Positions 9,824-23,835 are shown, counted from the stretch's first letter. The stretch: DNA of 64,000 nt from Spirochaetaceae bacterium (GCA_007128315.1 SKXQ01000023.1:12842-76841); one strand, 5' to 3'. Notes: a model not told the origin generated them from the sequence alone. Numbers and translations are program-made.

Positions 9824-12136
9824 ATGGATATAGATTATTATTTGGTCTTAGTGAGTGCAACAGACGGACTCAGCATCCTTATACTCGACTCAAACCCAAC
9901 GGCGCGCGCTGCAACTGCCCGGCGACTGTCAGCACGAGGACTCACGGTTTACGGTGCCGACACTGTTGCCGACTCGATTCAGCAGATTGAGGAACACCTC
10001 GGGATTGTTGCCGTGCTCCTGAACGCGCAGGAGCATGATATAGATCAGTTCAGAGCGTCGCTGTACAGGGTCCTGGGTGTCGACCGCATAGCAGCCTGTC
10101 TACCCGTTACCGTTGACTCCACGCACCCGGAGGACGGACACGTCCTGTTGACGGGCTCCCGAGACGATCCTGATCCCTTATATGAGGCTGTTCGAACCGA
10201 GGTCAGCCGGCACTTTGAGCAGATCGATCTGCGCGAACACGTTCTCAGAAACCAGGCGCTCACGCGGGCAGTACCGGATGCGATGTTCGTGTTCGATGCG
10301 CAGGGAATCTACCAGGAAATTCACGCGCCGGATCAGAGCGCACTCGTGCGATCGCCTCGGGAACTCATTGGAAAATCCATCGCTGACGTTATGGGAACGG
10401 AAGTCCACGAGCGACATCTCAGTCAGGTCGCTGAGGCACGCGCAGACCGCGATGGTCACCGGCCACGACCGTTTCGGTACGAAGTGCGGATCGGCGACAA
10501 GAACCGGTACTTCGAGTCCATTCTGACTCTGATTGATGATGAACGCAGTCTGGTTGTTGTCCGCGATGTCACGTCGGAACAGCGCTATCATTCGCAGAAA
10601 CACGAACAGGCACAATACCAGGCTACGATTCACGCGATTTCGCGACGGTTTATGCAGGCAGTTCCGGATACTGCCGACACCGATCTGCTCTTCGCAATGC
10701 GAAAACTCGGTCAGCATCTCGGTGTCGACTGGGTCACGATCGGGTTGACTACCGGAGCAAGCGATGTTCTGGAAGTCACACACCACTGGCGAAAAACCGG
10801 TCCGTCCTTTCCTCCGGTGCTCGAGGATTCCGGCCCGCTGGAGATTCCCATGAACGTCCCCGCGATGGTGCAGGCGATGGAGCACCGGGGTTATCTCGAC
10901 ATACACGACACAGCCGCCGCACCGGAAGGCATAACGGCCTTCGCCCGGGACATGGAACGTTACGGAGTGCGGTCACTGCTCGCCTTTTCGCTGGTCGAGC
11001 GACAGGAAATCGTCGGCGCACTGGTCGTCTCGTGCGTAAAGGCGCGACCGCGCATGCGCTTGCGGGACATTACCCTCGTTCAGGTTGTTGCGAGACTCAT
11101 CAACGACGCCATTATCGCTCAGCGCAGCTATGTGCGAATCGAGCAGACATCAGAAGGATTCGAGGCGCTGTTCGGTCTGAGTCTCGAAGGGCTGCTCATT
11201 CACCGCGGCGGACAGATTATTCACGTAAACGGGGCATTCGCGTGCATGTTCGGGTACGAGCAAAGCGAGTTAACCGGATGCGATATGCACCCGCTCATCA
11301 GACCCGAGTATCACCGCCTCCTTCTCCCTGGAAGCGAAACTAAAAGGCAGAATCGACAGACCGTCGTCGGAATACACCGAAATGGCGAGGACATCTGGCT
11401 CGAGATCGAGTGCAGGCCGGTGCCGCTTGAAGACGGTCAGGCAGAGTTGGTCGCCTTTCATGATGTTTCTCACCATATAAAACGGGAGGCACAGATTGAA
11501 CGGCTTCTGCACGAGAAAGAACGTCTCATCAAGGACATTCACCATCGCCTGAAGAACCAGATGCTCTCCATCGAAAGCCTTCTCTCCCTGAAATCCCAGG
11601 AAGTCGGGACCGCTTCATCCGCCTCGGCCCTGAACGAAACGCGTAATCACGTCCACGGATTGGCGCTCCTCTACGACCGCCTGTACCGCTCAACGGAGAG
11701 CAGCGATCTTCTCGCCGCTTCCGGGTACCTTCCGACGCTCATACAGGACATAATCCAGCTCTCTGCTCATCAGGCAGGACTGGAAGCGAACATCGATATC
11801 CCGGATACCCGGCTTACGGTCCGCAGGTTGTCGCGCCTCGGCATGATACTGAACGAGCTGATCAGCAACACCGTGAAGCACGCGTACCCCGATCCCGGCG
11901 ACGGTCAGGCTCGATCAGGCGTCATAACCATTGCGCTTGCCGAGACGGCACCTGGTGAACTCACGCTGAGCTACGCCGACGACGGTAAGGGCATCCCGGA
12001 TGCGGTCGCGAATGGCCACTCGGCAGGACTCGGCATGGACCTCGTCCGCGCCTTCTCCGAAGAAATCGGGGGGACGTTGACGATATCCGGATCCTCCGCG
12101 GGGACCGCTGTCAGGCTTGTGTTTCCGTCCGGCTAG
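9824..12136 (+). CDS. Multi-domain sensor histidine kinase (REC-like N-domain, PAS, GAF, PAS, HisKA_2-type DHp, HATPase)
   Basis: LSILILDSNP receiver-like start. H-box IHHRLKNQMLSIESLL (HisKA_2/HWE style). N-box LNELISNTVKHAY. G-box DDGKGIP...GLGMDLV. Confidence 0.85.
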   Translation: MDIDYYLVLVSATDGLSILILDSNPTARAATARRLSARGLTVYGADTVADSIQQIEEHLGIVAVLLNAQEHDIDQFRASLYRVLGVDRIAACLPVTVDSTHPEDGHVLLTGSRDDPDPLYEAVRTEVSRHFEQIDLREHVLRNQALTRAVPDAMFVFDAQGIYQEIHAPDQSALVRSPRELIGKSIADVMGTEVHERHLSQVAEARADRDGHRPRPFRYEVRIGDKNRYFESILTLIDDERSLVVVRDVTSEQRYHSQKHEQAQYQATIHAISRRFMQAVPDTADTDLLFAMRKLGQHLGVDWVTIGLTTGASDVLEVTHHWRKTGPSFPPVLEDSGPLEIPMNVPAMVQAMEHRGYLDIHDTAAAPEGITAFARDMERYGVRSLLAFSLVERQEIVGALVVSCVKARPRMRLRDITLVQVVARLINDAIIAQRSYVRIEQTSEGFEALFGLSLEGLLIHRGGQIIHVNGAFACMFGYEQSELTGCDMHPLIRPEYHRLLLPGSETKRQNRQTVVGIHRNGEDIWLEIECRPVPLEDGQAELVAFHDVSHHIKREAQIERLLHEKERLIKDIHHRLKNQMLSIESLLSLKSQEVGTASSASALNETRNHVHGLALLYDRLYRSTESSDLLAASGYLPTLIQDIIQLSAHQAGLEANIDIPDTRLTVRRLSRLGMILNELISNTVKHAYPDPGDGQARSGVITIALAETAPGELTLSYADDGKGIPDAVANGHSAGLGMDLVRAFSEEIGGTLTISGSSAGTAVRLVFPSG

Positions 12137-12585
12137 TTGCGGAGTGGTCTGACTTCGACCTCGGTTTTGACACGCGCACCCGACTCAAAATGGAGCTCCA
12201 GCTCAAAACTCTCCCCGGCCTCCAGGGCGTGGTTCAGGCCTATAAGCATCACGTGTATCCCCATGGGCTCGAGGACCACGGTTTCACCGGCCGGAACCGC
12301 GAGTCCGTCGTGCAACGGCCTCATGACCATGACATCTCCGTTGCGTTCATGCACATGTATTTCTATGACCTCAGCCGCGGCCGAGTACCCCCCGATCAGA
12401 ACATCGTCGGTATCAGAATTGCTGGTGAGTCTCAGGTACGCTGCTGCGTTGCGGGGTATACCCGCTGTCTCTCGAGCCCATGCATTCTGCACCCGGAAGG
12501 GTTGCTGTTCACCACGACCACCGGCGGAGGCAGTCACGGCAAGGAGCATAACGACACTGCATGCGGTCAGAAACCGGCGTCTCAT
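12133..12585 (-). CDS. Periplasmic copper chaperone PCu(A)C (DUF461 family)
   Basis: Signal peptide, then IHVHERNGDVMVM...MGIHVM, an H-x10-M...H-x-M copper(I) motif. The ATGA overlap with the upstream fusion gene suggests coupling. Confidence 0.85.
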   Translation of the reverse strand: MRRRFLTACSVVMLLAVTASAGGRGEQQPFRVQNAWARETAGIPRNAAAYLRLTSNSDTDDVLIGGYSAAAEVIEIHVHERNGDVMVMRPLHDGLAVPAGETVVLEPMGIHVMLIGLNHALEAGESFELELHFESGARVKTEVEVRPLRN

Positions 12586-14381
12586 AGTCCGACCTGATTC
12601 GCCGCAACTGATCGGACGGTACCGTGGCGCATGTGATTTCGTATCGCCCGGGCAACGTTCTCCGGACCGAAGTCATGTATGAACCAGTTGATAAAGTTAC
12701 CGTCGGTATCCATAAGATACATGGCCTTCGAGTGGTCCATGCTGTATCCTGCGGCACTCCCGGTGTCCACCTGTCTGGCGAAGGCGCCGAAGGATCGAAC
12801 TGCATTCGTGACCTGCTCGCGTGTGCCGCCCAGACCGACCATGCGTGAGTCGAAGGCTTGTACGTAGGAGGCGATCGCTTCGGGGCTGTCACGATCCGGG
12901 TCAACTGAGATAAAGATCGGCTGCACCAGGTCGGCATCGTCTCCAAGGGCGTCGAGAACGTCGAGCATGGTGTTGATGGTGATCGGACAGTAGTCGGTAC
13001 AGTTCGTGTACCCGAAGCCGACAAGGCGATACATGCCGTCAAAATCCGACTCCGTCACCAGCCGCCCGGGGCCTTCCTGCAGCTCGAAGGCACCATCAAT
13101 CACATCCTCGTAGATTACCGCTGTGGCCATACCACCAGCGGAGTGGTTCAGCTCGTGACAGTGAAACAGCCACACACCTGGATTATCCGCTATGAACTCG
13201 ATGTCGTAGGTGTCGCCCGGCATGACCGTCTGTACGTTTTTAACCAGTTCAAGCCCGGCCGGCACAGGGTTTCCGTCGGTCGCGACGATGCGAAACTGAT
13301 GTCCGTGCAGATGCATGGGATGGAAGGTCGCGCTTCCCGCATTGATCATGCGTATACGCACCCGGTCGCCGTAGGTCACTCGTATGGGCTCGGTATCGGG
13401 ATAGACCCGGCCGCTGATCGGAAACAGTCCGCGATTGATGCGCTCGGTCAGCACGATCGTGTGCTCCACATCGGGCCGGTCGTAATCGCGCGGCTCAATG
13501 ACAATGGGGCCTGCAAGGCCCATATCCATCTGCCTGGCCTCGCTGAGATGATCGAGCCCGTGGGTATGATAAAAGCGGGTCCCCGCGGGATACGCATCAA
13601 ACTCATAAACAAAGGTCTCGCCGGGGCGCGTCGCCTCCTGCGTATATCCCGGAACCCCGTCAGACCAGTTCATGAGGTCTATCCCATGCCAGTGAACGGT
13701 TGTCGCCTCGGGCAGATAGTTCGTGAACTCTACCCTTACGCGGTCACCTTCTGTTACGCGTATTTCGGGTCCCGGAAGCTGTCCGTTGTAGCCCCAGCTT
13801 TCCACCGGTTCTCCGTTGCCGTAGTCCCACATGACCACCTCGGCGGTCAGGCGGAAGACTTTTACGCCGTCTTCATCGACCTCGTAGGGCAGCACGCTGA
13901 TCGCGTCCTCCGCAGAACGGACGGGTATGTCCGATTCCGGCGCTTCGGCGGCACCGGTATCAGCAACAGACTCCCCTTCGCCGGTCACAAAGAGGGTTCC
14001 CCGCTGACTGAAATGCCCCGATCCGCAGTAGACCGAGCAGTAAAACTCGAAATCGCCGCTCCGGGAGGCGACGAACTCGACTGTCGTCGTCTGGCTCGCG
14101 GGAAGTCGCTGATCCACGTTGAACTCGCGAATCGCGAAGCCGTGGTCGTATGTATCTTCGTTCGTGATATGGAGTCGAACCAGTGTACCGGCTTCAACAG
14201 TGATTTCACCGGGATCCCAGGTCCATGTGTTCTGTATCACGCGCATATCGATGTCAATTTCCTGACTCGCCGCCACAGGCATGGATGCGCTGACGACCGA
14301 TACCGTCCCGAATCCTATAAATACGAGCCCAAGAACAACGTATGCGCCCAGAAGGGCGCGAAGTACCACGTGCTTTTTCAA
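12582..14381 (-). CDS. Tri-domain copper protein: CuA-type cupredoxin + two-domain multicopper oxidase + Sco1/SenC thiol-disulfide copper chaperone
   Basis: Cupredoxin: DHGF...YCSVYCGSGHFSQ. MCO: HWHG, YHTHG, HPMHLHGH, HCHELNHSAGGM. Sco: NCTDYCP plus MDHS. The ORF track starts at TTG 14456; I prefer TTG 14381, 6 nt after GGAGG, which gives an MKKHVVLRALLG signal anchor. Confidence 0.85.
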   Translation of the reverse strand: MKKHVVLRALLGAYVVLGLVFIGFGTVSVVSASMPVAASQEIDIDMRVIQNTWTWDPGEITVEAGTLVRLHITNEDTYDHGFAIREFNVDQRLPASQTTTVEFVASRSGDFEFYCSVYCGSGHFSQRGTLFVTGEGESVADTGAAEAPESDIPVRSAEDAISVLPYEVDEDGVKVFRLTAEVVMWDYGNGEPVESWGYNGQLPGPEIRVTEGDRVRVEFTNYLPEATTVHWHGIDLMNWSDGVPGYTQEATRPGETFVYEFDAYPAGTRFYHTHGLDHLSEARQMDMGLAGPIVIEPRDYDRPDVEHTIVLTERINRGLFPISGRVYPDTEPIRVTYGDRVRIRMINAGSATFHPMHLHGHQFRIVATDGNPVPAGLELVKNVQTVMPGDTYDIEFIADNPGVWLFHCHELNHSAGGMATAVIYEDVIDGAFELQEGPGRLVTESDFDGMYRLVGFGYTNCTDYCPITINTMLDVLDALGDDADLVQPIFISVDPDRDSPEAIASYVQAFDSRMVGLGGTREQVTNAVRSFGAFARQVDTGSAAGYSMDHSKAMYLMDTDGNFINWFIHDFGPENVARAIRNHMRHGTVRSVAANQVGL

Positions 14382-14462
14382 GCCTGACCTCCAGAACCGA
14401 TAGTAATATTTTTTATCGATATGATAAAAAATACCAGCGCCGGGGTTTTTATACAAGCTTTT

Positions 14463-15239
14463 TTAGCGGTAAAACGATACCGTCGGGTTCCGGTGGAGCG
14501 CCACGAAGAAACGCGCCACGGCAAGGGTGCTGTGGCCAACGATCACAGGAAGCAGCGAGCCGGAACTCACGACCAGCAGTCCGGCGACTGTCGACAGCAC
14601 GAGCCCACCGAAGGCCGGCACGCATCCATCCGGAAGTCGCGACAGTCCATACAGAACCGCCGAAACGGCGATTGCAAGATCTGCACCTGCAGGCAGAAGC
14701 AGCGCAAAGAGGACACCACGAAGAATCCACTCCACTGCCGCTGTGTGCACGACCAGGCCGAGCAGGTTCGCGATGAGTGCCCACCATGTCCACTCGAGGA
14801 CGGGGGGGTCGGTTTCAATATCCGGATCGGGTGTCGCCCTCATGCGGCGAGCGATATAGTACGCGAGCACGAATGCAACCACGACGGCGGTCCAGATCCA
14901 CGCCTGCGTATCAAGGATATCCAGAGAAGCAAGGTCCGGAGCGACGCTCATATGGAACCGCTGCGGCAGTCGCTGTGGCAGCATCCATCGGACAAGCGCG
15001 TACACGGCGCCCGGTCCTGCAAGATACATGAGGACGGCGAAGAGTCTGCGGACGCTCACACCGAGTATCTCGGCAACAGGACTTACGAGGCCGGGATCGC
15101 GCGGCGCCGTCAGCGTGAGGGCTTGCGACTCGAAGAACTGCTGATATCCGATCGACGTGCGCAGGAGTGCGTAACACATCGCACCGACGGTGAAACTCCC
15201 AAGCGTACTGACGACAGCAACAGTGTTCAGCATGTACAT
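14463..15239 (-). CDS. Polytopic membrane protein, divergent CPBP (CAAX protease / bacteriocin-processing)-like
   Basis: About 7 TM helices. AAVEWILRGVLF resembles the EExxxR motif, and VGHSTLA resembles the HxxxN motif, but the FxxxH position reads YGLSR. This may be a non-catalytic member. Confidence 0.45.
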   Translation of the reverse strand: MYMLNTVAVVSTLGSFTVGAMCYALLRTSIGYQQFFESQALTLTAPRDPGLVSPVAEILGVSVRRLFAVLMYLAGPGAVYALVRWMLPQRLPQRFHMSVAPDLASLDILDTQAWIWTAVVVAFVLAYYIARRMRATPDPDIETDPPVLEWTWWALIANLLGLVVHTAAVEWILRGVLFALLLPAGADLAIAVSAVLYGLSRLPDGCVPAFGGLVLSTVAGLLVVSSGSLLPVIVGHSTLAVARFFVALHRNPTVSFYR

Positions 15240-15284
15240 CAGTCTGCCGCATGACCGGGTTCAGAGCAAGTCATCGGATGCCTA

Positions 15285-15310
15285 TTGACCGTATTATTAC
15301 CAAGTAATAC
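15285..15310. promoter_or_regulatory. TTGACC -35-like box followed by inverted repeat gtatta-N8-taatac in the divergent region between the copper module and the COG0523 gene; candidate Zur/Fur-family operator
   Basis: Read directly at 15285-15290 (ttgacc) and 15291-15310 (gtattattaccaagtaatac). Lies 12-31 nt upstream of the COG0523 ATG. Confidence 0.35.
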
Positions 15311-15321
15311 CATCCGGCTCC

Positions 15322-16551
15322 ATGGCTGTACAAAACGATACCCGTCTTCCCGTCACCGTCCTGTCCGGTTATCTGGGGTCGGGCAAGACAACGCTGCTGA
15401 ATCATGTGCTGAGTAACCGTGAGGGCCTGAAGGTAGCCGTCATTGTAAACGACATGTCCGAAGTCAATATTGACGCCGCTCTTGTACTGAAGGGAGACGC
15501 CGCGCTCAGCAGAACCGAGGAAGAACTCGTGGAGATGTCCAACGGATGTATCTGCTGCACCCTCCGGGATGATCTTCTGAAGGAAGTGACCAAGCTCGCT
15601 CGCGCCGGACGCTTCGATTACCTGCTCATCGAAAGCTCGGGGGTCTCCGAACCGCTGCCGGTGGCACAGACCTTTACCTTCGACGACGAGGAAGGCAAGA
15701 GCCTCAAGGATCTGACCCGCCTTGACACCATGGTCAGTGTCGTTGATGTATCGCGCTTCTTCGACGAGTTCGGCAGCGAAGATTTTCTTGTCGACCGCGG
15801 TCAGGGCATGGCTGAAGACGATGAGCGCACCATCGCCCACCTTCTGACCGATCAGATCGAGTTCGCCGACGTAATCCTGCTCAACAAGATTGACGCGGTC
15901 GATGAGCAGGAGCTTCGCAGGGTCGAGTCGGTCGTTCGAAGACTGAATTCTACCGCGGAGCTCGTACACACCGAATTCGCACGGGTCGATCTCGCGCGCA
16001 TTCTCAACACGGGAAAATTCGACATGGACGCTGCCGAAAGCTCCCAGGCCTGGCAGGACGAACTTGAGGCGGTGCACGTACCGGAGACAGAAGAGTACGG
16101 TATATCTTCGTTTGTGTTTCGAACGGAGCGCCCGTTTCATCCACAGCGACTCGCCGAATACTGGAATGGTGAGCAGGAGGGAGTCATCCGGGCAAAAGGA
16201 TTTTTCTGGATTGCCAGTCGCCCGGACGTCGCCTGGTACCTCTCGCAGGCCGGAAGTGCGAAACGGGCGGAGCCGGGGGGATTCTGGTGGGCGGCGATGC
16301 CGAAGAAGTACTGGCCGGACACGGATGCCGAGCGTCTGGAAGTCCATAAACTGGTCAGGGGCAGCGAGTTCGGGGACAGAAAGCAGGAACTCGTGTTCAT
16401 TGGACGCAGCATGGATGAGGCGGGTATTCGATCGGGACTGTCGGCGTGTCTGCTGACACAGTCCGAACTCGAAGAGGGACCGGAAGCATGGGCAGCCTTC
16501 GCGGACCCGCTCGGATCTCAGCTTCCCGAAGACATGACGGTGCCGGAATAA
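15322..16551 (+). CDS. COG0523-family G3E GTPase (CobW/ZigA/YeiR-like metal chaperone)
   Basis: P-loop GYLGSGKTTLLN, CxCC metal motif GCICCTLRDDL, ESSGVSEP, NKID, and a C-terminal CobW_C-like domain. Confidence 0.88.
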   Translation: MAVQNDTRLPVTVLSGYLGSGKTTLLNHVLSNREGLKVAVIVNDMSEVNIDAALVLKGDAALSRTEEELVEMSNGCICCTLRDDLLKEVTKLARAGRFDYLLIESSGVSEPLPVAQTFTFDDEEGKSLKDLTRLDTMVSVVDVSRFFDEFGSEDFLVDRGQGMAEDDERTIAHLLTDQIEFADVILLNKIDAVDEQELRRVESVVRRLNSTAELVHTEFARVDLARILNTGKFDMDAAESSQAWQDELEAVHVPETEEYGISSFVFRTERPFHPQRLAEYWNGEQEGVIRAKGFFWIASRPDVAWYLSQAGSAKRAEPGGFWWAAMPKKYWPDTDAERLEVHKLVRGSEFGDRKQELVFIGRSMDEAGIRSGLSACLLTQSELEEGPEAWAAFADPLGSQLPEDMTVPE

Positions 16552-16587
16552 TAGTCGGTATGGCCTGACCGGTAGTATCTTTCGCAA

Positions 16588-17352: not shown

Positions 17353-18903
17353 ATGAGTGACACCAGAACACAGGAAACAGACAGCGCAGCGAAGGAACCG
17401 TATAAGGTTCCCGAGGGAGCAGGCTCGACGCATTCGCTCTCGCTACAGGACGGAACGAGGTTCGACTACGCGTCGTCCGCTCAGTGGTTGCCCGTCTACG
17501 ACAAGCGACAGAAACCGGTTGCCGAGATTTTTCACGTCTCATACATCGGCACCGCCGATGACGAAGCCTCCCGCCGCCCGCTGACGTTTGTGTTCAACGG
17601 GGGTCCCGGAGCAGCGAGCGCCTACCTCCACATGGGCGCTGTCGGTCCGCGGCGGGTCGTATTCAACGAGGACGGAAGCCCTTCACCGCCACCGGTTCAG
17701 ATCGTCGATAATGCGGAGAGCTGGCTCGCCTTTACCGATATCGTGTTCGTCGATCCGGTCGGAACCGGTTTCAGTCGCGGAATAGAGCAGAACGCGGAGT
17801 CCGGCGGCACGAAGGAAGACGCGGAGAAGAACAACCCGGACAGCCCCTTCTTCGGATTGAACAGAGATCTGGAGAGTCTCTCGGAGTTCATGCAGGCCTA
17901 TCTGTCACAGCACCGACGCTGGGAGTCACCGGTCTTCATTGCCGGAGAAAGCTACGGCGGTTTTCGTGTTGCAAAGCTCGTTCGCATGCTGCAGGAACGC
18001 TACAGCATCGGGCTCTGCGGTGCGGTGCTGATCTCGCCGGCACTCGAGTTCTCGCTCCTCGATGCATCAGACTACGACGTTCTGCCCTGGGTGGACACCT
18101 TCCCGACCATGGCTCTCGTTGCTGCCGCTCACGCACGCCACCAGGCTTCAAGCGCCTCGGGAACGGGAGCCGAGGCAATTGAAACCGTTCGTAAAGTCTC
18201 CGAACGCTTCGCCGTAACGAGCCTGCCCGCCCTGCTGACGGCAGGACACTTCACACCGGCGCCGGAACGCGAAGAGCACTACGGAATCATGAGTACCTAT
18301 ATCGGGCTGAGTGAAGACCTCATAAAAAGGAACGAGGGACGCATACGCACCCGTACCTTCTCCCGGGAACTTCTTCGGGAGGAACGAAGGGTGCTCGGTC
18401 TGTACGATGGAACGATTTCGATTACCGATGCCTACCCGGACCGGGAGCAGTACGAGGGCCCGGACGCGACTTTGAGCACGATAGACCGGATATTCGGAGC
18501 AGGGGTGAACACGCAACTCCGCGCGACAATAGGGGTAAAGACCGATCGGGAGTACCGTCTCCTGAGTTACGAGGTAAACCGCTCCTGGAAAATCGATTAC
18601 GATCGCCACGTCCTGCAGACGCAGATTGGCGCTACCGACGACCTGCGCTACGGCATGGAGCTCAATCCCTACATGAAGGTGCGCATCTCACACGGCATCT
18701 ATGATCTGGTGACTCCGTATTTCAGTGCAGAGCGCATTGTCGCAAACATGAAGCTCAACCCGGAAAGCCGCTCGCGCCTGAGCCTTAAACACTACCCGGG
18801 CGGTCATATGTTCTACAGCAGAAACGCCTCGCGTACGGACTTCACTACTGATATGCAGCGCTTCTACGCCGATGCCATCGCCGCGCGGACCGCGACCCGG
18901 TAA
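17353..18903 (+). CDS. Serine carboxypeptidase, peptidase family S10
   Basis: FNGGPGAASAYLHMG (oxyanion region), GESYGG catalytic serine motif, and a C-terminal GGHMF histidine region. Confidence 0.8.
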   Translation: MSDTRTQETDSAAKEPYKVPEGAGSTHSLSLQDGTRFDYASSAQWLPVYDKRQKPVAEIFHVSYIGTADDEASRRPLTFVFNGGPGAASAYLHMGAVGPRRVVFNEDGSPSPPPVQIVDNAESWLAFTDIVFVDPVGTGFSRGIEQNAESGGTKEDAEKNNPDSPFFGLNRDLESLSEFMQAYLSQHRRWESPVFIAGESYGGFRVAKLVRMLQERYSIGLCGAVLISPALEFSLLDASDYDVLPWVDTFPTMALVAAAHARHQASSASGTGAEAIETVRKVSERFAVTSLPALLTAGHFTPAPEREEHYGIMSTYIGLSEDLIKRNEGRIRTRTFSRELLREERRVLGLYDGTISITDAYPDREQYEGPDATLSTIDRIFGAGVNTQLRATIGVKTDREYRLLSYEVNRSWKIDYDRHVLQTQIGATDDLRYGMELNPYMKVRISHGIYDLVTPYFSAERIVANMKLNPESRSRLSLKHYPGGHMFYSRNASRTDFTTDMQRFYADAIAARTATR

Positions 18904-20180
18904 CCCGACCAGGCAAGGTATGCGGCCTCGGACATCAGCGCTATGATCAGGCTGCCCGCAGCGAGAACCGCACCGGGTACCTCAAAGAGAACAGGTCCGA
19001 GCCATACGCAGATAAACAGAACCACACTGTGTATCGCGACGGCCTTCGCCAGCGCACCTGTGCGATGATCGCATATCAGCCGCCCCCGGAACCAGGACTT
19101 CACGGTCGTCAGAACCGGCGCAAGAAAGAGCACCATAACCGGCAGAGCCGTGAATGGAAGAAGCTGTTCGGACAGTCCGCTGACACCGCGAAACCACAGA
19201 CCCGAAAGAGGTGTGAAAGCGGTCAGCAGGAGCAGGGAACCGAGAACACCGCCGAGGATTGTCGCAAAGCGCCGCAACGGGTAGTAGTTCGCCGGGTTCC
19301 GCGCGAGTATGGCGACAACGGCCTCCTGAAAGCTCAGCCCCATGGAGTTGAACAGGAACATGTAGCCGTTGATCACCGGCCACACGGCGAGCGCTTCCCG
19401 CGGAAAGAGCGCTCTGGCCATACCGAAGGTCAACAGAGGCTGCGCCGAGAGAAAAATCACACTCGTCAGAGACAGCGGTACATAGAACGCGAGCATATGT
19501 CGGGTCGAGAGCGGCTCCTCACCGTTGTCGGGCAGCTCATCCCGGACGACCGGCCGGCAGTATAACCAGCTCGCAAGACAGCCTGCCGCGACTCCTGCGA
19601 TCAGCGAAAGCCCTGCGAGCGTTGCTCCGGCGATCGATCCGACGAGATAGCCGGGGATCAGTACGAGCGCGACCGCGGCGAGCCGTATAACCATAGTGAC
19701 GGGTATCACCCGGGTATGACCGTAGCGGATCAGGACTCCCTGCCAGAGCCGACGGTAGCCGACGAGGGCGGTAAACGGTGTCATCGTCAGGAATGCAATA
19801 CGACTCGGCTCAACGAGCTCTTCGGGTACACCGAGGACCGTTTGCACGATGAACGCGAACAGGGGCGTAACAGCGATCAGAAGGTGGATGAGCGTGAGCG
19901 CAGCCCCGAGGATATGCATGAAGTTCAGCAGTTTCCGGTAGCGGCCACGATCGGAGGCCAGCGCCGTCCCCGCGGAAAGTAACTGTATGATGGGACTTTC
20001 GATCACCAGCGCTATGGAAAACGCAATACCGAACGCGGCAAGGTTCAGCGTTTCGTCGGGCAGCCGCGCAATGACCGCTGCGAGACCCGGCTGCTCGATC
20101 GCCATGGCGATCCACATGAGCGCAAGCGGAAGCCAGAACAGAAAGATCTGCCGTTGTGAGAAAACCGTATTCTGTTGCAT
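18864..20180 (-). CDS. MATE-like (MOP superfamily) polytopic transporter, last gene of the riboflavin operon
   Basis: About 12 TM helices with two-fold internal pattern. The N-terminus (FLFWLPLALMW...AAVIARLPDETLNLAAFGIAFSI...LLSAGTALAS) resembles MatE repeats. Starts 13 nt after the ribH stop on the same strand. Confidence 0.55.
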   Translation of the reverse strand: MQQNTVFSQRQIFLFWLPLALMWIAMAIEQPGLAAVIARLPDETLNLAAFGIAFSIALVIESPIIQLLSAGTALASDRGRYRKLLNFMHILGAALTLIHLLIAVTPLFAFIVQTVLGVPEELVEPSRIAFLTMTPFTALVGYRRLWQGVLIRYGHTRVIPVTMVIRLAAVALVLIPGYLVGSIAGATLAGLSLIAGVAAGCLASWLYCRPVVRDELPDNGEEPLSTRHMLAFYVPLSLTSVIFLSAQPLLTFGMARALFPREALAVWPVINGYMFLFNSMGLSFQEAVVAILARNPANYYPLRRFATILGGVLGSLLLLTAFTPLSGLWFRGVSGLSEQLLPFTALPVMVLFLAPVLTTVKSWFRGRLICDHRTGALAKAVAIHSVVLFICVWLGPVLFEVPGAVLAAGSLIIALMSEAAYLAWSGYRVAVRAAMASA

Positions 20181-20193
20181 GAACGGTATCAGG

Positions 20194-20682
20194 TCAGAGC
20201 TTCGTCATGAGATCGGCCATTTCGATGGCCGTCAGGGCACAGTCCCAGCCTTTGTTGCCACTCTTGATGCCGGCGCGGTTGAGTGCCTGCTCGACCGTCT
20301 CGGTAGTAAGCACGCCGAAGACAACCGGCTTGCGATACTCGAGTGCGATCTGGCCGATACTTTTGGCCGCTTCCCCGGCGACGAAGTCATAGTGGGTCGT
20401 CTCGCCGCGAATCACCGCACCGAGACAGATGACAGCATCAATGTCGGCGCGCTCGGCGAGCTTCGCCGCAGCAGGGCCGATTTCGTAGCTGCCCGGAACC
20501 CTGACCACCGTGATATCGGTGGGCTTTGTGCCGTGCCTCAAAAGGCAGTCTTCCGCAGCAGCGTAGAGCTGCTCGGTCACGAGACCGTTGAATCGGCTGA
20601 CTATGATTGCAAAGCGTTTGCCGTCCGCCTTCAGCTCGCCTTCTATGTGTTTTACGTCCGTGTGCATGGTCTTACTCTCCAA
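20194..20682 (-). CDS. ribH: 6,7-dimethyl-8-ribityllumazine synthase
   Basis: FAIIVSRFN, VVRVPGSYEIGPAA, CLGAVIRGETTHYDFV, VVFGVLTTE. Confidence 0.95.
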   Translation of the reverse strand: MESKTMHTDVKHIEGELKADGKRFAIIVSRFNGLVTEQLYAAAEDCLLRHGTKPTDITVVRVPGSYEIGPAAAKLAERADIDAVICLGAVIRGETTHYDFVAGEAAKSIGQIALEYRKPVVFGVLTTETVEQALNRAGIKSGNKGWDCALTAIEMADLMTKL

Positions 20683-21301
20683 TCAGTCGTGCGGCTTCCG
20701 CGATTTCATCGACATGAACCGTGTGCATCCCGAAGGTCCGGGCAACGGTCTCAAGTTCCGGGCCCCGAGCCATGGTTCCGTCCTCGGCAATAATCTCACA
20801 GATTATACCGACAGGATAGAGGCCCGCTGCCCGACAGAGCCAGACAGACGCTTCGGTATGGCCGCGGCGTGCGGCAAGGCCTTCCGGATGCGCTACGATC
20901 GGAAACAGGTGTCCAGGTCGCCCGAGTTCATCCGGCTTTGCGTTGGCATCGCAGAGGACGGAGATCGTTTTTGCCCGGTCCGCCGCAGAAATACCGGTGG
21001 TCGTCCCTTCCACCGCGTCTACACTTACCGTAAAGTTCGTTCCATGCAGTGCCGAGACCGTACCGGTCTGCGGTGGCAGGTCGAGCTCTTTCGCACGCTC
21101 CCCGGTAATCGTCGCACAGATAAGACCGCGCCCGTGCACAGCCATGAGATTGACGACGTCGGGACCGGCAAACTGCCCTGCGCAGAGAAAGTCTCCCTCG
21201 TTTTCGCGATCAGCATCGTCAAGGACAATGATAATCCTCCCCGCTTTCAGTTCCTCGAGGGCCCGTCGGACGCGGCCCTCGGGCAGTTTTTCGATGTTCA
21301 T
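20672..21301 (-). CDS. ribB: 3,4-dihydroxy-2-butanone-4-phosphate synthase (monofunctional, no GTP cyclohydrolase II domain)
   Basis: DDADRENEGDF, HGRGLIC, TVSVDA, and RRGHTEAS motifs. At 209 aa it covers only the DHBP synthase domain. Confidence 0.92.
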   Translation of the reverse strand: MNIEKLPEGRVRRALEELKAGRIIIVLDDADRENEGDFLCAGQFAGPDVVNLMAVHGRGLICATITGERAKELDLPPQTGTVSALHGTNFTVSVDAVEGTTTGISAADRAKTISVLCDANAKPDELGRPGHLFPIVAHPEGLAARRGHTEASVWLCRAAGLYPVGIICEIIAEDGTMARGPELETVARTFGMHTVHVDEIAEAARLIGE

Positions 21302-21912
21302 TTCGATCCTCCGAGTGCACCGGCGTAAACGCGAAACATGCGTTCGACGTAGCGACCGAGAATATCGGTTTCCACGTTCACTCTGTCACCGGGCTGATGG
21401 TGTGTGAGATGCGTATGAGTGGCGGTGTGCGGCACTATGTTAATGCCGATGATGTCCTGTTCTATCGAAGCTACGGTGAGACTCACGCCGTCGAGTGCCA
21501 CTGACCCCTCGGGTACAACGAGCGGCAGCAGCGTTTCGGGAAGGCGTAATCGAAGCAGAATGCTCGTTCCGCGGTCGGTCACATCCACGACCTCACCGAG
21601 GCCGGATACGTGCCCCTGAACCATATGCCCCCCCATGCGTGTGTCGGCACGCATTGAGCGCTCGAGATGCACTGGCGAGCCTTGCTCAAGACGACCCATG
21701 GTGGTCTTCGTGAGGGTTTCACCGACGGCCTGTACGGTGAAGGCGTGGTCCATAAGCCGAACCACTGTCTGGCACACGCCGTTCACGCTGATCGAGTCTC
21801 CGATTCTCGCGTCCTGAATCACGGTCTGTGCGTTGATCTCGATCTCGACTCCGTCTCCAACCGATCTCACCGCGGCGACAGAACCGGTCTCTTCTATTAA
21901 ACCTGTAAACAT
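21298..21912 (-). CDS. ribE: Riboflavin synthase alpha chain
   Basis: MFTGLIEETG start and duplicated lumazine-binding repeats (SISVNGVCQTV / SVALDGVSLTV). Confidence 0.93.
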   Translation of the reverse strand: MFTGLIEETGSVAAVRSVGDGVEIEINAQTVIQDARIGDSISVNGVCQTVVRLMDHAFTVQAVGETLTKTTMGRLEQGSPVHLERSMRADTRMGGHMVQGHVSGLGEVVDVTDRGTSILLRLRLPETLLPLVVPEGSVALDGVSLTVASIEQDIIGINIVPHTATHTHLTHHQPGDRVNVETDILGRYVERMFRVYAGALGGSK

Positions 21913-21916
21913 AGCC

Positions 21917-23083
21917 TTACACTACTCCTGTTTCGTTCCAGGGAAGCACATCCTCCCCGACTCCTGGTGCATCCATCTTTCCATAGGTCCGCTTCACGTC
22001 GAGCAGACCGCTTATGACCATATCGTCCCCGCTTCGCGCGTGAATCACCCCGTACAATCGAGGTCTGTCACCTGCCCGCTCGACGCCGATCTCCGACAAC
22101 CACGAAACGCCGGATCCCATGAGGCTCGGGTTCGTGAAAACCGTCAGGCGGTCGACAAGGCCCTCCGCGATGAGCGAGGTCGCGAGCGCCCCGCCGCCCT
22201 CGGCAAGAACGCTGCTGATTCCCCGTGTCGACAGGTACCCGAAAAGACAGGTCAGGTCGACCCGCCCCTTTGCGTCGGTTCTGCAGCCGATGACCGTGAC
22301 TGATGGCCCGAGCGCAGGCGCCGAACGGGCTGCATCTTCCGAGCACGCAACGATGGTTTCTGCCGCTCCGTCACTGATAATGCGTGCGCCCTCGAGATGT
22401 CGCAGGTGGGTGTCCACGACGATACGGACAGGATTACGGCCTGCGACGTGGCGCACGGTCAACGAGGGGTTATCTGCCTGAAGGGTTGCTGCACCGACGA
22501 GAACCGCGTCATACCGTGCCCGCATCCGGTGAACGGCTGCTCGCGACGGCTCGCTGCTGATCCAGTCTGCGCTCCCGTCGCGGGCCGAGATACGGCCGTC
22601 AAGGGTCTGGGCAATCTTAAGATGCACATAGGGGATGCCACGTTGTATCCACGCGATGAAAGGCTCGTTCAGCAGAAGCGCCCTGTCGGCGCACACACCG
22701 GCTGTGGTCGTGATGCCAGCCTGCTCAAGTGTCTTCTGTCCCAGGCCTGCCACGTGCGGGTTGGGATCATGAACAGCGAATACAACGCGCGCAATGCCGG
22801 CCTCAATGATTCTGTCGGTGCAGGGAGGGGTCTGTTTCTCAGGGGTACGGTGGCAGCAGGGCTCAAGATTGCAGTACAGCGTTGCACCCGCAGCTGCCTT
22901 GCCGGCGGCTTGCAGGGCAGCTGCCTCGGCATGAGGTCTCCCATAGGCTTCGTGCCAACCCTCCGAGATCACCGTATTGTCCCGTACAATCACAGCACCT
23001 ACCAGGGGGTTCGGTGACGTGGTACCTGTGCCCAATGTCGCCAGCTCAAGAGCCCGCGCCATGTAGGCATCATCCCCAGTCAT
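21917..23083 (-). CDS. ribD: Bifunctional diaminohydroxyphosphoribosylaminopyrimidine deaminase / 5-amino-6-(5-phosphoribosylamino)uracil reductase
   Basis: Deaminase HAE...PCxxC (GRPHAEAAAL...LEPCCH) followed by the reductase domain (KIAQTLDGRIS, EGGGALATSL). Confidence 0.93.
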   Translation of the reverse strand: MTGDDAYMARALELATLGTGTTSPNPLVGAVIVRDNTVISEGWHEAYGRPHAEAAALQAAGKAAAGATLYCNLEPCCHRTPEKQTPPCTDRIIEAGIARVVFAVHDPNPHVAGLGQKTLEQAGITTTAGVCADRALLLNEPFIAWIQRGIPYVHLKIAQTLDGRISARDGSADWISSEPSRAAVHRMRARYDAVLVGAATLQADNPSLTVRHVAGRNPVRIVVDTHLRHLEGARIISDGAAETIVACSEDAARSAPALGPSVTVIGCRTDAKGRVDLTCLFGYLSTRGISSVLAEGGGALATSLIAEGLVDRLTVFTNPSLMGSGVSWLSEIGVERAGDRPRLYGVIHARSGDDMVISGLLDVKRTYGKMDAPGVGEDVLPWNETGVV

Positions 23084-23184
23084 GAGATGACTCCTTTCTC
23101 GTGTATCGGGGCATGTGGTGTGGGAAGAAAACGCGACCGCGTACTCCGGGCCGAGAAAGGCTTCGGACAGTCGACTCAGTACAC

Positions 23185-23320
23185 CCGCAATCTTCTCCCT
23201 TCCGGACTATACCGTCGGTTCCGGAATCACACCGGATCAGCACGCAGAATTACGCGCTCGCGGACTATACCGCCGGTCTGGAATCGTGCTTTCGCACTCA
23301 CCATGCCCCGAAGATTACGG
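23185..23320 (-). promoter_or_regulatory. FMN riboswitch (RFN element) in the ribD leader
   Basis: The minus strand reads aatcTTCGGGGCAtGGTGa..GATTCCaGACCGGCGGTAtAGTCCGCGAGC...GATCCGGTGtGATTCCGGAaCCGACGGTAtAGTCCGGAaGGGAGAAGatt. P1 pairs gaagatt (23310-23316) with aatcttc (23189-23195). Confidence 0.92.
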
Positions 23321-23382: not shown

Positions 23383-23835
23383 TCACCCGGCGTGAGCTAC
23401 AGGATGATGCGCGTGATCGTCATGATCGGGACAGCCGTCCGGGCAGGCGCCACCGACGGTAATCCGTATACTCTGGAAGTCAGCACCCGTCTGTTCCCGA
23501 ACCGTACGCGCGATCGCTTCCATGTCCGCCGGCAGATCGTGAACGGTGCCGCAGTTCATGCACACGTAGTGAATGTGTTCCTCGTGTGCGAGCTCGTAGA
23601 CTGAACGCTGACCCGGAAGCGGAATCTCCCGGAGTATGCCGTTATCGGAAAGGGTGTGCAGATTCTTGTATATGGTCGCGAGTGAAATTGACGGAAAATG
23701 AGTCTGTGCGCGGGAAAACAGATCGTCAACACCGAGGTGTCCGTATGCCATGATCTCGCGAAGCAGCACGAGACGCTGAGGGGTCACTTTAAGGCCACCC
23801 TGCCTGATTACATCCTGCAGATGCTGTTCGTTCAT
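23383..23835 (-). CDS. Fur-family metalloregulator (Fur/Zur/PerR type) with His-rich C-terminal tail
   Basis: Winged-helix VTPQRLVLLREI...SLATIYKNLHTL, HHIHYVCMNCGTVHDL (CxxC), a second Cys pair GGACPDGC, and tail PDHDDHAHHPVAH. Confidence 0.85.
   Translation of the reverse strand: MNEQHLQDVIRQGGLKVTPQRLVLLREIMAYGHLGVDDLFSRAQTHFPSISLATIYKNLHTLSDNGILREIPLPGQRSVYELAHEEHIHYVCMNCGTVHDLPADMEAIARTVREQTGADFQSIRITVGGACPDGCPDHDDHAHHPVAHAG

Follow-up and report, generated by a model that had tools for sequence, protein, structure and literature searches.

A predicted ANKH-family transporter encoded as the fifth gene of an FMN riboswitch-headed riboflavin operon in one spirochaete lineage: a candidate for efflux coupled to the flavin pathway

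Results

A 64,000-nucleotide stretch of DNA from a Spirochaetaceae bacterium (GCA_007128315.1, SKXQ01000023.1:12842-76841; the whole stretch is referred to below as the window, and positions given without a locus name are counted from its first letter) carries a riboflavin biosynthesis (rib) operon headed by a flavin mononucleotide (FMN) riboswitch and ending with a gene for a 438-aa protein with 12 predicted transmembrane (TM) helices. As judged from its sequence and position, this gene is a genuine fifth cistron of the ribD-ribE-ribB-ribH operon, and its product is assigned to an uncharacterised prokaryotic branch of the ANKH family, a predicted secondary transporter. We tentatively read it as an efflux transporter coupled to the flavin pathway. 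A function in flavin transport is a plausible hypothesis, short of a supported conclusion, because the linkage of the family to rib genes is split, being present in 11/11 sampled members of one clade and in 0/84 elsewhere. The original prediction had described this protein as a MATE-like candidate flavin transporter; the observation itself was confirmed, and its interpretation was partly supported.

Organization of the rib operon

The elements of the operon are as follows, in the order of transcription.

23186-23319, minus strand: canonical FMN riboswitch aptamer (Rfam RF00050)
23084-23185, minus strand: expression platform, putative translational OFF switch, from minimum free energy (MFE) structures
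21917-23083, minus strand: ribD, bifunctional deaminase/reductase (RibD_C and dCMP_cyt_deam_1 domains; TIGR00326, 314 bits, cut-off 156)
21298-21912, minus strand: ribE, riboflavin synthase (two Lum_binding domains; NF006767, 222.6 bits, cut-off 155)
20672-21301, minus strand: ribB, monofunctional 3,4-dihydroxy-2-butanone-4-phosphate synthase (DHBP_synthase, 241.8 bits; TIGR00506, 210 bits, cut-off 177)
20194-20682, minus strand: ribH, 6,7-dimethyl-8-ribityllumazine synthase (DMRL_synthase, 178 bits; TIGR00114, 173 bits, cut-off 84.6)
18864-20180, minus strand: predicted fifth cistron, 438-aa ANKH-family 12-TM transporter (PF07260), with its ATG 13 nt past the ribH stop

The four rib genes were identified by hidden Markov models (HMMs) and the riboswitch was matched by RF00050 over its full length with 102.5 bits, so that the riboswitch and gene order originally proposed were both verified. 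The genes are tightly packed, with a gap of 4 nt between ribD and ribE, an overlap of 4 nt between ribE and ribB, an overlap of 11 nt between ribB and ribH (by the longest open reading frame (ORF) calls) and a gap of 13 nt between ribH and the transporter gene; these coordinates agree with the overlaps and gaps claimed earlier. The ribH gene was called from a TTG codon, and an ATG five codons downstream may be its true start. RibB carries no GTP cyclohydrolase II domain, and the bifunctional RibBA models match it by their N-terminal halves only. No ribA, ribF, known flavin transporter gene or paralogue of the transporter gene was found in the 64-kb window; together with the monofunctional RibB, the lack of ribA there indicates that the first step of the pathway is encoded elsewhere, outside the operon of this riboswitch.

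The absence of a hairpin or terminator between ribH and the transporter gene, also part of the original prediction, was upheld: a consensus scan detected no promoter-like or terminator-like site at this junction, and folding gave no stable hairpin. The four terminator-like matches in the region all lie within coding sequence, against 3.4 expected from shuffled sequence. At its 3' end, the transporter gene overlaps a convergent gene for an S10-type carboxypeptidase-like protein by 40 nt (18864-18903), which leaves no room for a terminator after the transporter gene and implies overlapping antisense transcripts. The same overlap was observed in relatives, with 40 nt in locus L090 (11278-11317) and 25 nt in locus L089 (2159-2183). 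The anatomy of the operon is thus directly established, and from it we infer co-transcription of the five genes; as the fifth cistron of a riboswitch-headed rib operon, the transporter gene would have its expression tied to riboflavin synthesis.

The FMN riboswitch and its leader

The aptamer match clearly exceeded the gathering score of RF00050 (66.2 bits; E = 1.1e-22) and covered model positions 1-138 of 138, and every strongly conserved consensus position shown in the cmscan alignment was matched. The aptamer shares its strand with ribD and ends 102 nt before the ribD ATG, which puts it in the 5' leader of a gene for flavin biosynthesis; variant subtypes of the FMN aptamer are never rib-linked (PMC6298564). 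Its sequence places the element in the canonical FMN riboswitch class, and FMN binding and repression are predicted.

In the MFE fold of the expression platform, a predicted anti-Shine-Dalgarno (anti-SD) element, CCUUUCUCG (23160-23152), pairs with CGAGAAAGG (23101-23093), which overlaps the ribD Shine-Dalgarno (SD) motif AAGGAG (23096-23091). In the fold of the whole leader (z = -2.76), a platform segment at about 23137-23108, complementary to both strands of the aptamer P1 helix, pairs with these strands. The consensus scan found no intrinsic terminator or terminator-like site in the leader. The mutually exclusive pairings are those expected of an SD-sequestering OFF switch, which is probably the mechanism here as far as the folding models go; the anti-SD is kept only loosely among related loci. 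If the switch hides the ribD SD, then FMN control of the fifth gene would be only indirect, through translational coupling, Rho-dependent polarity or mRNA decay. SD-like motifs were found at ribD, ribE and ribB and not at ribH or the transporter gene, an absence that says little, since only 10 of the 32 ORFs of the window have such a motif. A TTGACA at 23353-23348 may be the -35 element of a rib promoter.

Family and fold of the transporter

A Pfam scan matched the transporter to PF07260 (ANKH) with 42.4 bits (gathering threshold 22; E = 6.9e-11), aligning residues 13-256 with profile positions 14-264 of 344, and most homologues carry the same precomputed match. MatE (PF01554), MurJ, Wzx and Polysacc_synt gave no match at E <= 0.1 in the same scan, and none of the NCBIfam models, those for MATE proteins and flippases included, matched the transporter. 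Precomputed PF01554 matches occur in a few distant homologues (P0056, P0081 and P0101), indicating that the MatE and ANKH families are neighbours.

An AlphaFold2 model built on 24 homologues was entirely helical, with 12 TM helices and high confidence scores (pLDDT 92.6, pTM 0.89). A Foldseek comparison against the PDB yielded 57 matches at E <= 0.001, and the 50 listed were all MATE, MurJ or WzxE structures; among these listed matches, MATE proteins ranked first (TM-score up to 0.72), followed by MurJ and then WzxE. The N-terminal and C-terminal halves of the transporter cross-match in tblastn, as two six-helix halves. PDB sequence searches with the single protein and with a family profile returned no match, that is, no solved structure with detectable sequence likeness, and no ANKH structure turned up for comparison. 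The model thus gives the protein the fold of the multidrug/oligosaccharidyl-lipid/polysaccharide (MOP) superfamily, which comprises MATE, MurJ, Wzx and ANKH proteins, and the PF07260 match gives its family directly. The earlier description as a MATE/MOP-like 12-TM protein therefore held for the fold and failed for the family, which is PF07260 and not MatE.

Two other classifications were rejected. Membership of the MatE family was ruled out by the lack of a PF01554 match together with a PF07260 score above threshold, and a polysaccharide or lipid II flippase was ruled out by the lack of an HMM match, the lack of a glycan-synthesis neighbourhood and the lower structural rank; the neighbours in the 95 loci described below are not polysaccharide clusters. 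Accordingly, the HMM comparison of MatE with flippases returned neither of them and ANKH instead, and the flippase identity named in advance as an objection to the original prediction was borne out neither by HMM nor by neighbourhood.

Across the family, five arginines (R39, R143, R144, R166 and R365) and four glutamates (E29, E61, E286 and E418) are invariant. By analogy with MurJ and ANKH, this set could serve an anionic substrate.

Linkage to rib genes is conserved in one clade

More than 1,300 family sequences were found at E <= 1e-3 in a 90%-identity collection, and the named matches were mostly from Spirochaetes, with some from Chloroflexota and one from Desulfoplanes. A full profile search of 1.84 billion representatives gave 988 clusters at 50% identity (E <= 1e-30), and the prokaryotic ANKH-like family, with these approximately 1,000 clusters, is spread over Spirochaetota, Chloroflexota, Desulfobacterota and others. 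A contig search with the single protein as query returned two close loci, and the closest public record, "Spirochaetaceae bacterium isolate DLM2.Bin42", shares 97% identity. For the analysis of gene neighbourhoods we used 94 related loci and the window, of which 10 loci besides the window were rib-linked and 84 were unlinked.

All 11 sampled homologues with at least 65% identity (the window, L001, L002, L008, L083, L084 and L087-L091) have ribH directly upstream on the same strand. An FMN riboswitch is present in 7/7 clade loci that reach upstream past ribD (the window, L001, L002, L008, L083, L084 and L090). The arrangement is therefore directly seen to be conserved in this clade, and the expectation that orthologues would share the rib or riboswitch linkage was satisfied here and contradicted in the rest of the family.

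The junction between ribH and the transporter gene is close throughout the clade. In the 10 relatives, it is a 4-nt overlap (ATGA or GTGA; gap of -4 nt) in four, a gap of 11-13 nt in three and a gap of 30-100 nt in three, so that, with the window counted, 11-13 nt occur in four loci, and the distance never exceeds about 100 nt. The five-gene block remains contiguous despite changes on its flanks, namely, the insertion of a glycosyltransferase gene upstream and the presence or absence of the S10 peptidase gene downstream. The inserted gene, coding for a glycosyltransferase with a QTMAN_N domain, lies between fur and the riboswitch in relatives with 68-69% identity (L083 2571-3716; L084 2327-3649) and is absent from the window. 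At the deepest divergence within the clade, the transporters share 65-69% identity, as compared with 53-63% for RibD, RibE, RibB and RibH; being better conserved than the Rib enzymes, the transporter appears to be under purifying selection.

A single lineage and the possibility of a passenger gene

Other results weigh against a coupling to the flavin pathway, and most of them fit an alternative in which the protein is a housekeeping ANKH-like exporter of an unrelated anionic metabolite, whose gene entered the rib operon a single time, at its permissive 3' end, in an ancestor common to the clade and was then inherited as a passenger. We regard this as a serious possibility, almost as likely as flavin-coupled efflux.

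The linked proteins group as a single clade in a neighbour-joining tree, and the sisters of this clade (P0012, and P0010 with P0011) are unlinked. The synteny of the flanks is also kept within the clade, with a Fur-family gene upstream and the S10 peptidase gene or an MsrA-CobW pair downstream. One clade with conserved flanking synteny implies a single acquisition in one spirochaete lineage, and the gene order is then explicable by descent. Linkage did not recur in independent lineages of the family, since the linked members are a single clade and the other 84 loci are unlinked; linkage from a single event is much weaker evidence than recurrent independent linkage.

The unlinked members (at most 63% identity) gave no sign of a flavin-related setting. 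Rib genes were found in 0/84 of these loci within the available flanks, which were searched by tblastn with RibD, RibE, RibB and RibH of the window over 79 loci and by the Pfam labels of called genes for L085, L086 and L092-L094. A custom covariance model, built from close relatives only, detected an FMN riboswitch in 0/81 unlinked loci, and a scan of 49 unlinked loci with all of Rfam found no riboswitch of any class. Weak, GC-rich, partial matches to the FMN model (8-10 bits, E > 3) were seen directly upstream of two homologues with 53% identity (L033 836-940 and L036 942-1040); they are probably due to chance, because Rfam finds nothing there.

The neighbourhoods of the unlinked members are heterogeneous and not flavin-related, and each neighbour family is present in at most 7 of 79 loci. 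Those neighbours that recur (DsrE-like, D-Ser-dehydratase-like, SDR, DUF401, LEA_2, PLP decarboxylase, FtsJ, HIBADH and LOG) have no common theme, other examples include TlyA-like and M14 peptidase genes, pseudouridine catabolism genes and a MarR-MatE pair, and no conserved neighbour that would reveal the substrate of the family was found. The commonest membrane-protein neighbour is a DUF401 protein, encoded within about 1.5 kb of unlinked members in six loci (L018, L020, L021, L027, L061 and L092). The nearest unlinked relative, P0011 (61% identity), is encoded by the third gene of a MarR-MatE-ANKH-like cluster (L085 4991-8314), a layout typical of regulated efflux.

The polar residues conserved across the family (E29, R39, E61, H99, R143, R144, Q147, R166, Q285, E286, R365 and E418) are all kept in the rib-linked clade, and only one clade-specific fixed change at a family-conserved position was observed (A43E), as compared with three and one in two control clades. 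No retooling of the substrate pocket was thus seen in the rib-linked clade, and the lack of excess clade-specific changes suggests that the linked proteins probably do the same job as their unlinked relatives. The composition of the transporter gene is the same as that of the neighbouring genes, which also fits a passenger. Conserved rib operons are also known to carry unrelated genes, such as nusB behind ribH in many bacteria. The ribH-nusB and ribT-type passengers resemble the present case in that a rib operon stably keeps a non-biosynthetic gene at its 3' end; they differ in that they encode soluble proteins and their linkage recurs widely, whereas the window encodes a transporter, and transporters in vitamin operons usually have to do with the substrate.

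Against a passenger stand the stop/start overlap in four loci and the gaps of 11-13 nt in four more, since overlapping or close junctions indicate long-standing co-expression, and the integrity of the block while both of its flanks were rearranged. In addition, transporters inside riboswitch-controlled vitamin operons, such as RibM and RfnT (PMC4418817), have usually proved to carry the vitamin or its precursor.

Genomic context

The window is an ordinary stretch of spirochaete chromosome with 58.7% G+C. The following genes lie near the rib operon.

23383-23835, minus strand: Fur-family regulator (FUR, 85 bits), ending 63 nt before the aptamer; context only
17353-18903, plus strand: S10-type serine carboxypeptidase-like gene, convergent with the transporter gene; the same neighbour is present in L084, L089, L090 and L091
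15322-16551: ZigA-like COG0523 zinc-chaperone GTPase (579.7 bits, below the cut-off of 600)
12582-14456: multicopper oxidase fused to a SCO1/SenC domain; the fusion recurs in L084 and L088
12133-12585: PCuAC copper chaperone

The subtype of the Fur-family regulator is ambiguous, as the PerR, Irr and Fur models all scored below their cut-offs. A Fur gene lies upstream on the same strand in relatives as well (L083 2144-2566, L084 1900-2322 and L090 6376-6822). The last three genes belong to a metal-handling cluster (12133-16551), and the local metal-homeostasis flavour extends to MsrA and the Fur-family regulator; this context could connect with the known interplay of iron and riboflavin. An ORF of 438 aa runs antisense over the whole CobW/ZigA-like gene (15271-16587, minus strand) and is most likely a non-coding shadow ORF, as is common in G+C-rich DNA.

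Discussion

Possible efflux coupled to the flavin pathway

Taken together, efflux coupled to the flavin pathway is the best reading of these data, and we hold it as a possibility that falls somewhat short of probable. The canonical FMN riboswitch would control ribD, most likely by hiding its ribosome-binding site when FMN is abundant, and the transporter would be made together with the Rib enzymes, with FMN control reaching the fifth gene by translational coupling or polarity. The substrate moved outward across the inner membrane would be an anionic flavin (FMN, flavin adenine dinucleotide (FAD) or riboflavin) or some other compound made by the flavin pathway. Such export would benefit the periplasm or the surroundings of these diderm spirochaetes; the analogy is with Bfe, YeeO and animal ANKH.

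We favour efflux because of the exporter fold, the export of nucleotides and organic anions by ANKH, the precedent of Bfe and YeeO, and the efflux-type context of the nearest unlinked relative. To our knowledge, all characterised MOP transporters move their substrate outward. In Shewanella, flavins are exported by the MATE-family protein Bfe (PMC3551548), and mammalian ANKH exports ATP and other nucleoside triphosphates (NTPs) as well as citrate (PMC7371198, PMC13356900). Animal ANKH (SLC62A1, the progressive ankylosis protein) shares PF07260 with the window protein, and its substrates are chemically close to FMN and FAD; on the other hand, the two proteins are distant homologues, with a match that stops about two-thirds of the way along the profile, and their physiological settings differ entirely. 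Bfe of Shewanella oneidensis and YeeO of E. coli share with the window protein the 12-TM MOP/MATE fold, a proposed export of riboflavin, FMN or FAD, and a diderm host with an extracytoplasmic need for flavins. They are MatE (PF01554) proteins, whereas the window protein is a PF07260 protein without a PF01554 match, for which flavin transport is putative. As far as we know, neither Bfe nor YeeO is encoded in a rib operon or controlled by a riboswitch.

The regulation adds to the points on the opposite side. The logic of an OFF switch is odd for an exporter of the end product, which would be produced under FMN shortage, and the transporters known to be controlled by a canonical FMN riboswitch are all importers (PMC4418817, PMC6298564). 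Moreover, if the switch acts on the translation of ribD only, as the leader model suggests, the control of the fifth gene would be indirect.

The same regulatory logic fits an importer of riboflavin or FMN that acts when the cell runs low on FMN, like RibM of Streptomyces and RfnT of Rhizobiales, which are encoded in rib operons: behind a canonical FMN riboswitch in an OFF-type leader, such a protein would be made when FMN is scarce. Every transporter found so far behind a canonical FMN riboswitch or within a rib operon either is an importer or has been proposed to be one (PMC4418817, PMC6298564), and multidrug-type exporters can run weakly in reverse (PMC6298564). Uptake nevertheless appears rather improbable. 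ANKH works as an exporter (PMC7371198), the nearest unlinked relative is found in an efflux-type MarR-MatE cluster, and the rest of the family, in the loci scanned, has no FMN riboswitch, whereas true importer families acquire it repeatedly. In addition, we know of no MOP-superfamily member that acts as a physiological importer.

Comparison with known riboswitch-linked transporters

The window case fits a known pattern, namely, a transporter encoded in an FMN-controlled rib operon, and differs from it by a new protein family and an exporter-type fold. RibM/PnuX, RfnT, RibU, ImpX, RibN, RibXY, RibZ, RibV and RfuABCD follow the same logic, as transporters co-regulated with rib genes under a canonical FMN riboswitch (PMC4418817). 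These importers belong to unrelated superfamilies (PnuC, MFS, ECF-S, DMT and ABC), and their linkage recurs in several lineages, whereas the linkage of the exporter-type window protein is confined to one clade.

The original prediction held that a MATE-like gene under FMN control would fall outside the known riboswitch-linked families. This was right in so far as the published list of FMN riboswitch-associated genes contains no MOP or ANKH protein (Table 1 of PMC4418817), but norM genes under variant FMN-type riboswitches had already been described (PMC6298564). In Clostridium, variant subtype 2 FMN riboswitches are ON switches located before norM, which codes for a MATE protein, and emrB, whereas neither norM nor emrB was associated with any of 11,603 canonical FMN riboswitches (Atilho et al. 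2019, PMC6298564). That analysis scored the immediately downstream gene, and a fifth cistron would therefore have been missed. The Clostridium system likewise combines an FMN-type aptamer with a MOP-superfamily pump for which flavin-related efflux has been proposed. Its aptamers, however, have lost FMN binding, act as ON switches, stand directly before the pump gene and are never rib-linked, whereas the window has a canonical aptamer, an OFF-looking leader and a pump gene in fifth place behind biosynthetic genes.

The Clostridium pumps also bear on a variant of the efflux reading in which the exporter serves damage control, removing not the cofactor but a reactive intermediate, by-product or breakdown product that becomes more abundant as the flux through the pathway increases, such as 5-amino-6-ribitylaminouracil adducts, dimethylribityllumazine or lumichrome. 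This alternative overlaps with flavin-coupled efflux and differs from it in the substrate only. Co-expression with the enzymes fits a substrate that tracks pathway activity, and the paradox of exporting scarce FMN is avoided. In Clostridium, pumps of the NorM/EmrB type are under variant FMN riboswitches, which turn them on upon sensing breakdown products of flavins (PMC6298564); the removal of toxic flavin derivatives is thus an acknowledged task of efflux. Conversely, the conserved Arg-rich residues are common to the whole unlinked family and none of the characterised rib operons is known to encode an exporter of this kind, and we give damage control only a slim chance.

The literature that we searched contained no paper joining ANKH with riboflavin and a riboswitch, or ANKH with the MOP superfamily and bacteria, and nothing on prokaryotic ANKH homologues, which a 2026 review of ANKH does not mention.

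Significance

Riboswitch-guided discovery has found most of the known bacterial vitamin transporters, and published surveys looked mainly at the riboswitch-adjacent gene. A MOP/ANKH-type protein encoded at the far end of a rib operon is unreported in the literature searched. The lead is moderately interesting; it rests on a single lineage-specific operon fusion and is directly testable. If the gene is only a passenger, the case would be a warning that operon membership in a single lineage is weak evidence of function.

A wider reading, which we consider unlikely, is that all members of the prokaryotic ANKH-like family export flavin nucleotides or related nucleotide cofactors to the benefit of the periplasm or the surroundings, as functional analogues of Bfe, and that only in the rib operon of the spirochaetes does the genomic context betray the substrate. 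Family-wide flavin export would give the bacterial ANKH homologues their first assigned function and would provide the first exporter under a canonical, FMN-sensing OFF riboswitch.

If the efflux reading proposed here is true, it would raise the question of why export is coupled to a signal of FMN starvation, for which periplasmic flavinylation, extracellular electron shuttling and iron acquisition are candidate explanations. A protein of this kind that moves flavins would add a new family to the flavin transporters and would offer the first functional handle on the bacterial relatives of human ANKH, the product of a disease gene that exports ATP and citrate.

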